A DNA stretch of 64,000 nucleotides from IMG/VR virus record IMGVR_UViG_3300049846_000568, positions 1 through 64,000 of that record; one strand, written 5' to 3'. This document shows, piece after piece, positions 7,072-13,604 of the stretch. A program made the position numbers and the translations under genes. Numbering within the stretch: the stretch's first letter is position 1; every line of letters begins with the position of its first letter. The notes beneath the pieces were generated by a model, which worked only from the letters and a program-made list of their open reading frames with translations, was not told the DNA's origin and ran no database searches. Source of the stretch: a virus.

Positions 7072-8337
7072 ATGTCTGATACCCCCGACGATCTCATCGC
7101 AGAAGAGGATATCCCCTTCTTTATGCTCGATGAGTGGACGAAGTGCTACATCGCGCTTGACTCTCTCGAAGATACCTGCAAGCACCTCGATGCTGCTGGT
7201 CTAGAGAACTACTACGTTCTCGCCATGGAGAAGCGTACGTTCGACTCCACCAACTCTGCTGGCGCAACCACGACTTCGGTGCGCTATAACCCGCAGGTGT
7301 TTGCGGTCAACACCACGATCTGTTACCGCGCGATCTCGCCAGTGGAGCACAAAGAAGTGCCGCTGGAGGAGATGGAGACTCGTGCGTCCTTTACCCTCCC
7401 AAGGATCCCCGCAGATATCGTCAATAGGCTTGACGATTTCTTCCGTCTGGTTGATCGCACTCACGGCACTGAATCTATCGTTCTACTTACCTTCGACCCG
7501 AATGCGGTCGATGAGGACGGTCGATGGAGCAGCGATGGCTGGGGTGTGCTTGTCCCCGACCAGGAGAACACCGCCACCGACTGCGAGTACGATCCAACAA
7601 GCGCCGCAGACAAGAAAGATGAGGACGTCTACATCGTAGGCTCGGTGCACAGCCATCCTCACATGAGCGCTTTCGCTTCGGGTACCGACCACAAGGATCA
7701 GAAGCACTTCGACGGTCTGCATATCACCTACGGTTGGCAGTCAAGCGTACAGAACGGCGCCACGCAGTATCATATCGAGCTGCAGATCAACGGCACGGTT
7801 TGGAGCCTCAAGCCCGAGCAGGTGTTTGAGTCTGAGCCCCCTCGTGTTCCTGACCCCTCCGTAGAGGAGTGGATGGCGAACGTCAAAAAAAAGACATACA
7901 GCACAGGGTACTCACGGCAGGGGAGCTCTCACAGCTCGCATGGGAGTACTACGGGTACATCTAGTCACCGCAGTGGCGGTTCTCTACAGCGAAGCATGCG
8001 CCTCCAGGAGATCAAGGGGCTTCCCACCGGTGCCCCCGACTGGAAGGAGAACATCCTCGTAGGACGCCTAAAAAGCACTACTGAAGAGGATTGCCCGTTC
8101 TGCAACCAGCCCCTGATCTCGCCGGACCGGACCAATCGTCTGTGCTCCGCATGCCACATGTACCTCGCAATGCCTGGCGAGACGGTCGAGGATGTGTTCA
8201 AGCAGCGCAGTGACGAGCAGCTCTACACCTGGGATATCGACCTCGAAGAGAACCCGACCAAGCCCATCGTGCTCTGGGAGCGCGACGTAGATGAGGCGAC
8301 CTTCACCAACGTCTACACCCCGGCGGGAAAAGACTAG
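7072..8337 (+). CDS. JAB/MPN+ (Mov34) metallopeptidase with C-terminal Zn ribbon
   Basis: E..HSHPHMSAFASGTD is an intact JAMM motif (HxHx7Sx2D); CPFC..CSAC. Confidence 0.92.
   Translation: MSDTPDDLIAEEDIPFFMLDEWTKCYIALDSLEDTCKHLDAAGLENYYVLAMEKRTFDSTNSAGATTTSVRYNPQVFAVNTTICYRAISPVEHKEVPLEEMETRASFTLPRIPADIVNRLDDFFRLVDRTHGTESIVLLTFDPNAVDEDGRWSSDGWGVLVPDQENTATDCEYDPTSAADKKDEDVYIVGSVHSHPHMSAFASGTDHKDQKHFDGLHITYGWQSSVQNGATQYHIELQINGTVWSLKPEQVFESEPPRVPDPSVEEWMANVKKKTYSTGYSRQGSSHSSHGSTTGTSSHRSGGSLQRSMRLQEIKGLPTGAPDWKENILVGRLKSTTEEDCPFCNQPLISPDRTNRLCSACHMYLAMPGETVEDVFKQRSDEQLYTWDIDLEENPTKPIVLWERDVDEATFTNVYTPAGKD
7887..7893 (+). other. candidate -1 frameshift site A_AAA_AAG inside the JAB gene
   Basis: A8G run at 7885-7893; downstream GTACTC..GAGCT/AGCTC..GAGTAC stem; -1 frame stops at 7962-7964. 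Confidence 0.45.
8325..8331 (+). other. candidate programmed -1 frameshift site G_GGA_AAA
   Basis: In-frame heptamer one codon before the JAB stop; -1 frame is open into the Zn-finger ORF; hairpin CTTCTC-TACA-GAGAAG follows. Confidence 0.7.
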
Positions 8338-8957
8338 GAGGCGTCTTCTCTACAGAGAAGGTAAACGGCGAAGAGCTAGGGTACTGCCCCACATGCTCAG
8401 CCGTTCTCTTGTCTGAGTATGAGCGAAGCCTCCCCAAATGCCCATACTGCGAGGCGCCTCTTAATGTGGAGGCAGGGTGGTACATCAAGTGCGAAAAATG
8501 CAATGCGCCACTCGAAATAGAATCTCCGATGTGCGAGAACTGCCACGAGATCTACTACGACGATTTCTGGACGAAATTCCTAGATGAATGGGATCCAGAG
8601 TTGGACCTTATCGACTTCGATGAGATGGAAGAGGTCGAAGTAGACTACACCAAGATGTACAAAGACTCTCACAACCTATGCTGCAATATGCCGCCTGAAC
8701 AGTGTGAATGTTTGCGTAAGGCAACATGGAACGACCTATACGACGTTGGTCTTGACTATGTCGAGCAGTACCAAGGAGATATGGATTCACCGTGTTGGCA
8801 GTGCAATAGGGTATGTGAAGCATCGTGTCCACCACTTCGAGTGTGGGCGCGCGAAGCAATCTTGGGCGCTAGAGATATCGGGAAGATATCTCCGTGTTCG
8901 GAGTTTGTTTCTTGGGATTCCGTTTCCGTTGGTCCAATACAGGACTACGAATACTGA
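8331..8957 (+). CDS. multi-CxxC Zn-finger domain, probably expressed as a -1 frameshift extension of JAB
   Basis: Frame is open from 8295 with no ATG/GTG/TTG until 8409; first CPTC motif (8385-8396) precedes the TTG. Confidence 0.75.
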   Translation, partial: RLGGVFSTEKVNGEELGYCPTCSAVLLSEYERSLPKCPYCEAPLNVEAGWYIKCEKCNAPLEIESPMCENCHEIYYDDFWTKFLDEWDPELDLIDFDEMEEVEVDYTKMYKDSHNLCCNMPPEQCECLRKATWNDLYDVGLDYVEQYQGDMDSPCWQCNRVCEASCPPLRVWAREAILGARDIGKISPCSEFVSWDSVSVGPIQDYEY

Positions 8958-8974
8958 TAGGATCAGACTAACCA

Positions 8975-9778
8975 ATGGCTGACAAGGCATATAGGTTCGT
9001 AGTGATTGGCGCAGGCGGCATCGGATCGTCCCTGTGCAATTACCTCGCGATGATGCTGGAGTACAAGGCACCATTTTCGGGCCTACTCATCGTAGATGGC
9101 GACACATTCGAACCAAAGAACAAAGAGCGCCAGCTCTTCAAGGAGTATGGCAACAAGGCTGAGTCTCTCGCAGCCGATCTCGCACCTCAATACTCCAAGA
9201 CCGCCATCATTCCCATTGGGAAGTGGGTGGTGGAGACGGTTCCAGAGGATGCGGAGAGCGATACTCTGATCACCGCCGCGAGCCTACTACAGGAGGGTGA
9301 CGTAATCTTCCCCGTAGTAGACAACTTCAAGGCACGTAAGCTCATCTTCGACGTTGCTTCCACCATGGACAACATCGATGTAATCTCTGCTGGTAATGAC
9401 GACGCGCTATTCTGTAGCATGTACCACTACCAGCGTCGAGATGGTAAGGATGTAACCATGCATCCGCGCCACCTTCACCCGGAGTATGAGAACCCACCGG
9501 ATCGAAACCCGGGTGAACTCAGCTGTCAGGAGCGAGCCGCTATCGAAGGCGGTACTCAGCTTCTGGCAGCAAATGTTGGAGCTACCGCACTCATCCTAGG
9601 AAAGGTGCAGACGGTAGTATTCGACGCAGCAGAGCGAGACGACGAGAATGAGGACTACCCAGACGAAACGTTCTGGCAGATGGACCAGGGTCTCGCCGCA
9701 TCGTTCAACCGTTCAGCTGAACAACTGGCGTCGGCGGAAGTCGAGGCTGGTACTCTTACAACTACAGGAGTAAGTTAA
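8975..9778 (+). CDS. ThiF/E1-like adenylyltransferase (PRTRC-type, no Zn-binding CxxC)
   Basis: GAGGIGS, DGDTFEPKNKERQ, NKAE, VVDNFKAR, candidate catalytic Cys in ELSCQE. Confidence 0.93.
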   Translation: MADKAYRFVVIGAGGIGSSLCNYLAMMLEYKAPFSGLLIVDGDTFEPKNKERQLFKEYGNKAESLAADLAPQYSKTAIIPIGKWVVETVPEDAESDTLITAASLLQEGDVIFPVVDNFKARKLIFDVASTMDNIDVISAGNDDALFCSMYHYQRRDGKDVTMHPRHLHPEYENPPDRNPGELSCQERAAIEGGTQLLAANVGATALILGKVQTVVFDAAERDDENEDYPDETFWQMDQGLAASFNRSAEQLASAEVEAGTLTTTGVS

Positions 9779-9779
9779 T

Positions 9780-10037
9780 ATGGCTCAGGAAGCGCAGGGT
9801 AGCGCAGCACAGCAGGGCAGCCAGAACGCTCGCGTTCGTTACGGCGTCCACAACCGTCAGGGTGAACTGGCGGGTAAGAGCATTGCGCAGGTTCGCGCAG
9901 AGCTTGGTCGTCCTTGGCAGCTGCCAACGGATGCTTCGGCATTCAAGGGCACCGAGAAGCTTGATGAGGACTACGTCATCAAGCCCGGTGAGTCGATCGA
10001 GTTCCACCGTCGCCAGGGTGAGAAGGGTCTCGCCTGA
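9780..10037 (+). CDS. ubiquitin-like (beta-grasp) protein, precursor ending GEKG-LA
   Basis: GKSIAQVR...DYVIKPGESIEFHRRQGEKG pattern typical of MoaD/PRTRC-C-like Ubls; directly after E1; strong AGGAG SD. Confidence 0.85.
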   Translation: MAQEAQGSAAQQGSQNARVRYGVHNRQGELAGKSIAQVRAELGRPWQLPTDASAFKGTEKLDEDYVIKPGESIEFHRRQGEKGLA

Positions 10038-12011: not shown

Positions 12012-13604
12012 GTGAGCCTTGTCGAGCACCTGAAGATCCGCACCCCCCTCGTGTGGGTTAACACTCCTGAGCCAAACCGGTATCAGGATGTTGTTATGCG
12101 GTTCTGCTCATCCGACCTTTATGCAATCGATCCCAAGCTCGGTTTTTCGATCTGGGATCGCAAGTCCAAGCAGTGGAAGCCGATCCTCTTTGAGATCGAG
12201 AACCCCGCCACCGGTGAGGTAATCGAGGCAGCCACCTTCGAGATGAGCTTAGCGATTGGTTATGTGCTGGACAATCCAGGCACCATGATCATTCACTTCG
12301 CTCACAAGGTAGCGGAAGAGATGTCGGGATTGTTCGCGTGGGTCTTTGGCGATTATCGCAAAGCTTTCCACCAGGACGACAAGGCTCTGCTGGGTCCTCA
12401 GTTCGTTCTGTTTAGCCACGGTGCAGATATCCCTCAGGATCTGACGCACCTGCTAACCGTAGTTGAGCCCGCTCTACCAACCAGCACCGAGCTTGCCGAA
12501 ATCGCCGCTCATGTTGAAGCTAGCATTGGCGAGCACCTCACCTCCGAGGTGGACCTTTCCAAGGTTGGTATGTGCGGTATGGGTCTGACTGAACCAGAGT
12601 TCATCCAGTCTTGCTTGTTGAGTGTGCGGGAGCGCAAAGCGCTTGATCCACAGTTCATCAACGAGTACAAGATGGCCAAGATCCGTGCTGGTGGTAACCT
12701 GGAGATCCGCCGTCCTGGCAGTGGTCTTGATAGCATCGGCGGTATGGACAACGCCAAGAAGATGATTCGGCACATCAAGTGGATGTGGGACAATGAAGCG
12801 GAAGCCCACGAGCTTGGCCTCGAGCCGCTACGACGAGTGCTGCTCGTTGGTGTTCCTGGCACTGGTAAGTCTGCGATCTGTGAGGCAACTGCCAAGGAGC
12901 TGGATCTCGATCTTGCTAAGACCGGCATTAGCCAGAGCCTGAACAAGTTCATCGGTCAGTCCGAAGAGAACATGCGTCAGGTCTTCCGCCAGATCCGTGC
13001 CCTTGCTCCTATCGTCTGCTGGATCGATGAGTTCGGTCGAGACGTCTCTCAGGGCAACTGGCAGGGCGATGGTGGTACCACCTCTCGCGTGCACGGAGAG
13101 TTCCTGACTGGTATTCAGGAGCTTCCCAAGAACGTCTTCCTTATGTGCGCCGCCAACCAAATCGGCCACGTCGCCCCCGAGATGCTTCGCGCAGACCGCT
13201 TCGACAAGATCCTCTTCGTCGGCTTCCCGACCAAGTTGGAGCGAGTCGAGATCTTCAAGATTCATCTAGGCGCATCCGCCAACGACTTCGACCTGGAGGC
13301 GCTCGCGGATAACTCTCCAATGTTCACCGGTGCAGAGATCAAGGCCCTCATCCGTGAGACCAAGAGCAATGTCCACATGGAAGAGCGCCGACCCATCACA
13401 ACCAAGGATCTTCTGGACTTCATTCCAAACATGAAGAACAGGATCTGGCTACGCCACCCCAATGAGGTTCGCGATATGTATATCCGAGCACTAGAAGACT
13501 GGGATTGGGCTTCAAGTGCCCAGCAGGGCGAAGCGGCACTAGTCATCGACGGCCGAGCTGGTCAAATCGTAACCAGCGGCAGGCACGCATACTCAGGATT
13601 CTAA
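12012..13604 (+). CDS. AAA+ ATPase, Ycf46-like
   Basis: Walker A GVPGTGKS, Walker B CWIDE, Arg finger LRADRFD, FTGAEI; N-terminal degenerate domain (PLVWVNTPEPNR). Confidence 0.93.
   Translation: MSLVEHLKIRTPLVWVNTPEPNRYQDVVMRFCSSDLYAIDPKLGFSIWDRKSKQWKPILFEIENPATGEVIEAATFEMSLAIGYVLDNPGTMIIHFAHKVAEEMSGLFAWVFGDYRKAFHQDDKALLGPQFVLFSHGADIPQDLTHLLTVVEPALPTSTELAEIAAHVEASIGEHLTSEVDLSKVGMCGMGLTEPEFIQSCLLSVRERKALDPQFINEYKMAKIRAGGNLEIRRPGSGLDSIGGMDNAKKMIRHIKWMWDNEAEAHELGLEPLRRVLLVGVPGTGKSAICEATAKELDLDLAKTGISQSLNKFIGQSEENMRQVFRQIRALAPIVCWIDEFGRDVSQGNWQGDGGTTSRVHGEFLTGIQELPKNVFLMCAANQIGHVAPEMLRADRFDKILFVGFPTKLERVEIFKIHLGASANDFDLEALADNSPMFTGAEIKALIRETKSNVHMEERRPITTKDLLDFIPNMKNRIWLRHPNEVRDMYIRALEDWDWASSAQQGEAALVIDGRAGQIVTSGRHAYSGF

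Follow-up and report, generated by a model that had tools for sequence, protein, structure and literature searches.

A probable programmed -1 ribosomal frameshift joining a JAB peptidase to a cysteine-rich zinc-ribbon extension in uncultured phages

We analysed a stretch of viral DNA of 64,000 nucleotides (hereafter the window), which comprises the first 64 kb of the 145.8-kb linear IMG/VR virus record IMGVR_UViG_3300049846_000568; the completeness of the record is estimated at 69%. The window encodes a peptidase of the JAB/JAMM type, the gene for which is overlapped at its 3' end, in the -1 frame, by a cysteine-rich open reading frame (ORF) that we refer to as ZnF, for its predicted zinc-binding domains. 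The subject of this work is the junction between the two, at which a programmed -1 ribosomal frameshift very probably takes place. The following features define it.

7072..8337, + strand: JAB/JAMM peptidase gene, the zero-frame ORF of 421 amino acids
8295..8337, + strand: overlap of the zero and -1 frames, given by the stop-to-stop ORFs; the sole stretch in which a -1 shift could join both ORFs
8325..8331, + strand: slippery heptamer G_GGA_AAA, in phase in the sequence; the same or an equivalent heptamer occurs at 10 related loci
8335..8337, + strand: zero-frame stop codon TAG, one codon past the heptamer, a possible pause element
8331..8957, + strand: -1 frame extension of 208 codons plus a TGA stop, from ORF analysis

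The peptidase gene ends GCG GGA AAA GAC TAG, placing GGGAAAA at 8325-8331 in the phase G_GGA_AAA (X_XXY_YYZ). The -1 frame is open from stop to stop between 8295 and 8957 (220 codons), and its translation from 8331 begins RLGGVFSTEKVNGEELGYCPTC. The predicted trans-frame product comprises 628 amino acids, 420 from the zero frame and 208 from the extension. The first ATG, GTG or TTG codon of the -1 frame is the TTG at 8409, the 27th codon after the shift, which lies behind the first CxxC motif (Cys19/Cys22, 8385-8396); no GGAGG-like Shine-Dalgarno (SD) motif was found ahead of it. Furthermore, no promoter-like site was detected between the JAB and ZnF ORFs. An earlier note on this DNA had described the heptamer at the end of the peptidase gene, the continuation of the -1 frame into the ORF ending at 8957, and the lack of both a start codon before the first CxxC and an SD motif at the TTG; all of these descriptions proved correct. 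Three cysteine-rich elements can be distinguished within the extension.

8385..8450, + strand: zinc ribbon 1 (CPTC-x14-CPYC), straddling the TTG at 8409; a weak match to Pfam DZR
8490..8543, + strand: zinc ribbon 2 (CEKC-x10-CENC), from our alignment A2, in which C68 and C71 are nearly invariant
8679..8897, + strand: 8-Cys domain (CC-x6-C-x-C ... C-x2-C-x7-C ... C), from alignment A2 and the long-class sequences described below

A slippery heptamer at this position is not readily attributed to chance. Across the long ORFs of the window, 0.19% of codon positions carry a canonical heptamer in phase, and the chance expectation for the 14-codon overlap is 0.027 canonical heptamers, or 0.006 of the X_XXA_AAN type. 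Both codons of the site are in the minority here, GGA accounting for 15% of Gly codons and AAA for 22% of Lys codons, so that a Gly-Lys pair would rarely be spelled GGA AAA by chance. Of the 18 tRNA genes that the phage carries in the window, one (22125-22198) specifies a tRNA-Gly(UCC), which decodes the GGA of the slippery site; a tRNA-Lys gene was not found among them.

Homologues of the JAB protein numbered 434 among metagenomic proteins and fell into two length classes. Searches of GenBank phage records by DNA or protein gave no match, and a scan of IMG/VR with a single protein likewise gave nothing; the loci described here were found by an alignment-based scan of IMG/VR. The short class (396-455 amino acids) includes the JAB protein of the window. 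A C-terminal Gly-Lys followed by 0-1 residues was present in 37 of 49 short JABs and in 0 of 72 long-class proteins, the background frequency of Gly-Lys being 0.4%, and the ~15 residues preceding this ending vary among the short JABs.

We compared the DNA of 15 short-clade loci besides the window. An in-phase canonical X_XXA_AAA heptamer was located 0-7 codons (mostly 0-1) before the JAB stop at 11 loci, the window included, originating from eleven different samples. The heptamer is G_GGA_AAA in eight (the window, L002, L003, L004, L005, L050, L055 and L063), C_CCA_AAA in two (L022 and L061) and A_AAA_AAA in one (L060). Each of the 11 frameshift-type loci carries, in the -1 frame, an ORF of 184-246 amino acids containing 13-20 cysteines. 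The first canonical start codon of that frame lies behind the first CxxC in 10 of the 11, at distances of 19 to ~135 codons past the shift site (L002, +58; L005, +74; L022, +88; L055, ~+135). The slippery site is thus replaced solely by other slippery heptamers, and relatives that are free of a heptamer possess an SD motif with an ATG or are fused.

The seven-A run at the L060 site would suit a different mechanism, transcriptional slippage, in which RNA polymerase drops or adds a base within an A run and a subset of the mRNA encodes the fusion. Phage and bacterial polymerases slip on long A or T runs, with roughly 7-9 bases usually needed. However, only four A residues are present in the window and in seven other loci, as also in C_CCA_AAA, and it is the codon phase of the heptamer that is conserved, not the length of the A run. 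We consider slippage of the polymerase very improbable.

Fused and split forms of the same proteins provided a second line of comparison. The long class (~540-610 amino acids) consists of in-frame fusions of JAB with the 8-Cys domain, the part common to these proteins and the extension. All of the full-length long-class loci in IMG/VR (46/46) are fused in frame and are followed by a ThiF-sized gene; the contig of another long-type locus, L012, ends within it, and this locus stands outside the 46. In a quick maximum-likelihood tree (IQ-TREE), the long fused class forms its own clade with a support of 100, and the exceptions, split or fused, branch from inside a clade whose members mostly end in GK. 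Loci L056 and L057 have no heptamer and possess AAGGAGG or AAGGAG together with an ATG before the first Cys. Judged by their sequences, these are true split genes and serve as natural controls. Within the short clade, P0129 (locus L062, 655 amino acids) is an in-frame fusion of JAB, two ribbons and the 8-Cys domain, which retains an in-phase A_AAA_AAA at the JAB-ZnF junction (L062 3799-3805) and clusters in the tree with P0050, of the A_AAA_AAA frameshift type (support 82). Retention of this heptamer in P0129 agrees with descent from a frameshift-type ancestor via a one-base change. Of the remaining loci compared, L059 is a truncated contig and L058 is discussed below. The earlier note had proposed two comparative checks, conservation of the heptamer and the existence of in-frame fusions among homologues. 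Both were borne out, the former by all 11 frameshift-type loci and the latter by the long class and P0129.

We also examined how the extension has diverged. The window and its closest relative, L002, share 79% identity in JAB and 50% in ZnF. Over the 55 codons that follow the shift and come before any start codon in L002, comparison of the two gave a nonsynonymous substitution rate (dN) of 0.37 and a synonymous rate (dS) of 1.22 (dN/dS ~0.30), from which we conclude that this stretch is translated and under purifying selection.

In-frame fusions being the commonest form in the wider family, the layout in the window might be ascribed to artefact or decay, in which either a true frameshift mutation or a single-base error of sequencing or assembly broke an originally fused JAB-ZnF gene. 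However, eleven diverged loci (20-50% identity in ZnF) from eleven samples are offset by -1 at an identical position, which bears a canonical heptamer; the eight conserved cysteines are all kept, with a dN/dS of ~0.3, and four A residues in a row are not a homopolymer prone to error. With eleven independent assemblies sharing the -1 layout, an assembly indel is excluded. Artefact or decay is, in our judgement, hardly credible.

We conclude that a programmed -1 ribosomal frameshift at G_GGA_AAA very probably yields both the 421-residue JAB protein and a 628-residue JAB-ZnF protein from one mRNA. An isoform of about this size, made by a -1 shift, had been put forward in the earlier note; the size agrees with the sum of its parts (420 + 208), and the isoform is supported by the conservation of the heptamer and by the fused homologues. 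Slippage at the heptamer, its efficiency, the fixed ratio of isoforms supposed in the earlier note and a role for the added tail are what we infer from the observed anatomy, conservation and complementary fused and split forms. In the proposed mechanism, GGA would occupy the P site and AAA the A site (8326-8331), and a fraction of ribosomes would slip back by one base, tRNA-Gly(UCC) re-pairing with GGG and tRNA-Lys(UUU) with AAA. The slipped ribosomes would resume at 8331 as Arg-Leu-Gly-Gly..., bypass the TAG at 8335 and lengthen the protein by 208 residues, comprising the two zinc ribbons and the 8-Cys domain, before stopping at 8955-8957, just ahead of the E1 gene. Conversely, ribosomes that do not slip would add Asp421 and then terminate.

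Ribosomes may be slowed at the site by the adjacent stop codon and perhaps by a hairpin at 8342-8366. The zero-frame stop, which falls 0-1 codons past the heptamer in 9 of the 11 loci, is the most conserved flanking feature. An adjacent stop codon can have a pausing role in bacterial frameshifting, and by analogy the stop here, being decoded slowly, might make ribosomes pause. An Rfam scan of 8200-8500 revealed no frameshift element or other family.

Several observations weigh against a frameshift. The hairpin, to which attention had been drawn in the earlier note, is present after the site:

8342..8366, + strand: hairpin with the core CTTCTC-TACA-GAGAAG at 8345-8360, a candidate stimulator; folding energy -9.5 kcal/mol

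It begins 10 nucleotides past the heptamer but is no stabler than shuffled sequence (z -1.5 versus 200 shuffles, 16/200 of which fold equally well), and so the presence of the structure stands while a significant stability does not. The downstream hairpins of the relatives are unrelated and differ widely in strength, with z from 0 to -4.7, and there is no conservation of the hairpin in sequence; strong examples occur in L003, L004 and L055 (z -3.3 to -4.7). Additionally, an SD-like AGGAGG is found at 8336-8341, 5 nucleotides past the heptamer; lying downstream of the shift site, it cannot serve as an upstream stimulator of the dnaX type. Locus L004, the exception to the late start codons noted above, has an ATG of the -1 frame within the overlap, 16 codons ahead of the heptamer. 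Finally, L058 carries the non-canonical G_GTA_AAA and a GTG ahead of its first CxxC.

The AGGAGG motif, the conceivable own starts of L004 and L058, and the split genes of L056 and L057 with their own SD and ATG would all accord with two separate genes, with the ZnF protein initiated on its own, whether from TTG 8409 or from a non-canonical codon that follows AGGAGG, and no fusion made. Indeed, L058 appears ambiguous by its sequence, and independent initiation in some lineages is possible. In the window, however, TTG 8409 has no SD motif, and a start there would halve the first zinc ribbon. No ATG, GTG, TTG, CTG or ATH codon occurs between the AGGAGG at 8336-8341 and the first Cys. The first canonical start in L002, L005, L022, L055, L060, L061 and L063 comes after the first CxxC, 25-135 codons past the shift, and the window and L002 have no near-cognate start in common behind an SD-like motif (AAGAGG in L002). 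Moreover, separate genes would leave both the conserved in-phase heptamer and the GK-plus-stop ending unexplained. We therefore regard independent initiation of ZnF as unlikely.

Two other routes to the extension were considered and rejected. Stop-codon readthrough would not reach it, because ZnF lies in the -1 frame and a second zero-frame stop follows 9 codons past the TAG. Termination followed by reinitiation would need a start codon, and none is found near the stop in most loci.

We sought to characterise the extension further by structure prediction. The AlphaFold model of its 208 residues had a predicted local distance difference test score (pLDDT) of 75. With this model, Foldseek returned nothing at E <= 0.001 and VIA-align nothing above Z 2.5; the best scores in the ESM Atlas (0.84-0.85) were to hypothetical proteins only. 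The earlier note had suggested that the zinc domain might act as an E3-like module. Structural matches to NZF/RanBP2-type and RING domains reached only Z 2.0-2.5, which is noise level, with the whole extension as the query and not the 8-Cys domain alone; the best RING-like match was at Z 2.0, and the extension had no Pfam RING match. With these matches at noise level, no E3 or ubiquitin-binding function can be assigned, and this suggestion was not upheld.

In the 8-Cys domain, residues C117, C118, C125, C155, C158, C166 and C189 are invariant in alignment A2. The model of P0129 (pLDDT 79, predicted template modelling score 0.48) shows confident JAB and 8-Cys domains with disordered linkers between them, the 8-Cys domain attaining a pLDDT of ~90. 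The C-termini of ZnF ORFs and of long-class proteins (for example, window 8940-8954) are often aromatic/acidic, as in DYEY, NYEEF, SYYD, SYYE and LYYN. Such tails may constitute a conserved C-terminal docking peptide.

Two further features belong to the peptidase itself.

7648..7689, + strand: JAMM metal-binding motif H193-x-H195-x7-S203-x2-D206, from the translation; the upstream Glu is E134
8092..8154, + strand: zinc ribbon inside the JAB protein (C341, C344, C358, C361), invariant columns of our alignment A1

Residues E134, H193, H195, S203 and D206 are invariant across 49 homologues in alignment A1, and the JAMM/MPN+ zinc site is intact. The JAB protein scored 24.4 bits against Pfam Prok-JAB (PF14464), just below the 25-bit cut-off, and neither JAB nor ZnF matched PHROGs. 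In the model of its relative P0129, the JAB part matched JAMM deubiquitinases (Foldseek E 4e-5 to 1e-3); among the matches were an Rpn11-ubiquitin complex from an archaeon and a deubiquitinase of ubiquitin-like proteins from a bacterium. A second in-phase heptamer, A_AAA_AAG, is present in the JAB gene at 7887-7893, where it codes for a conserved Lys-Lys-Lys beyond the catalytic domain; there, a stop closes the -1 frame after 24 codons. The corresponding site is A_AAA_AAG also in L002, L055 and L056 and A_AAA_AAA in L057 and L060, with none in L003 and L004. This second heptamer may be a by-product of the Lys codons.

The JAB-ZnF junction is surrounded by genes for an unknown protein of 445 amino acids, a ThiF/E1 protein, a GxKG-tailed protein of 85 amino acids and an AAA+ ATPase. 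The E1-like gene is next in the operon:

8975..9778, + strand: ThiF/E1-like gene (Pfam ThiF, 1.5e-14)

Directly 3' of it, at 9780-10037, is the gene for the 85-residue protein, the C-terminus of which (...RRQGEKGLA) extends two residues past a Gly. The protein had no Pfam or NCBIfam match. It is a candidate ubiquitin-like modifier, the two residues past the Gly being the type of cap that a JAB peptidase would remove. The AAA+ ATPase (12012-13604, 530 amino acids) is of the Cdc48/proteasome-activating-nucleotidase type (CDC48 family, 1.7e-35); its gene lies ~2 kb past the JAB-E1 module and occurs in the syntenic relative L002 as well. Several relatives, namely L002 (2226-2447), L055 (317-586) and L062 (72-413), carry genes of the WhiB family not far upstream of the JAB module, with a few genes between, a hint that the hosts of these phages are actinobacteria.

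Two known types of locus were considered as a possible identity for the module and set aside. Against the NCBIfam models of the PRTRC cassette, scores were 24.4 bits for PRTRC_A (cut-off 101.8) and 21 bits for PRTRC_ThiF (cut-off 144.8). The neighbouring genes are not major tail or tape-measure genes, as they would be for a tail-assembly chaperone G/GT pair.

Frameshifting by -1 at heptamers of this kind is textbook knowledge; the gene family and the pathway are new for it. A literature search found no description of a JAB-ZnF frameshift or of the phage JAB family. The tail-assembly chaperones gpG/gpGT of phage lambda are produced by a -1 frameshift at G_GGA_AAG, and analogues exist in tailed phages. 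The locus resembles lambda in several respects: the heptamer is near-identical, the short zero-frame product ends just past the site, and the longer product shares its N-terminal part and gains a C-terminal binding module, position being conserved and not sequence. Unlike in lambda, the gene at this locus encodes a JAMM peptidase beside ThiF/E1, not a chaperone pair upstream of a tape-measure gene, and the extension occurs also as in-frame fusions and split genes in relatives. With Escherichia coli dnaX (tau/gamma) and copA, the locus would have in common the bacterial type of tandem slippage on X_XXA_AAN and two isoforms of one enzyme in a set ratio. However, the shift truncates the product in those genes and would extend it by 208 residues here, and neither an upstream SD-like stimulator nor a match to an Rfam frameshift element was seen at this locus.

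The peptidase in turn resembles the JAMM/MPN+ deubiquitinases and prokaryotic peptidases of ubiquitin-like proteins (Rpn11, AMSH, CSN5, the Caldiarchaeum Rpn11 homologue, the BilC-type deubiquitinase 8tyx and PRTRC protein A) in its Glu / HxH / S-x2-D site, in its fold (seen in the relative P0129) and in the E1-like gene of its operon. It is set apart from them by an N-terminus longer by ~110 residues, a zinc ribbon within the protein and a frameshift-linked Cys-rich tail.

Because every sister-clade protein carries the Cys-rich domain fused to JAB, and two lineages encode this domain on its own, we infer that it physically works with JAB in a ubiquitin-like conjugation module made up of JAB, E1 and the GxKG-tailed protein. 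By analogy with lambda gpG/gpGT, the frameshift would set the ratio of plain to extended subunits. A tentative and rather doubtful extension of this idea is that the frameshift serves as a stoichiometry device in phage ubiquitin-like tagging: the short JAB would mature or recycle the GxKG modifier, and JAB-ZnF, as a minority subunit, would form asymmetric oligomers tethering the peptidase to the modifier, to E1/E2 or to the target. Such oligomers of short JAB and JAB-ZnF may be likened to MPN+/MPN- pairs, with the tether provided by the zinc ribbons and the 8-Cys domain. If this were true, two peptidase specificities would arise from one gene, and the fused and split lineages would have re-tuned their ratio.

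To our knowledge, conserved -1 frameshifts are rare in bacteria and phages outside tail chaperones, insertion sequences, dnaX and a few other genes. The comparative support for the present example is unusually clean, consisting of three interchangeable heptamers together with fused and split controls, and makes it a test case for recoding predictors. The finding also corrects an annotation error, gene callers having cut the ZnF ORF to 117-163 amino acids in the records examined. Finally, it points to a large family of modules for ubiquitin-like conjugation that uncultured phages of ~200 kb carry. The architecture of the peptidase in this phage JAB family appears to be under tight dosage control, and that control may offer an entry point to what the phage systems tag.

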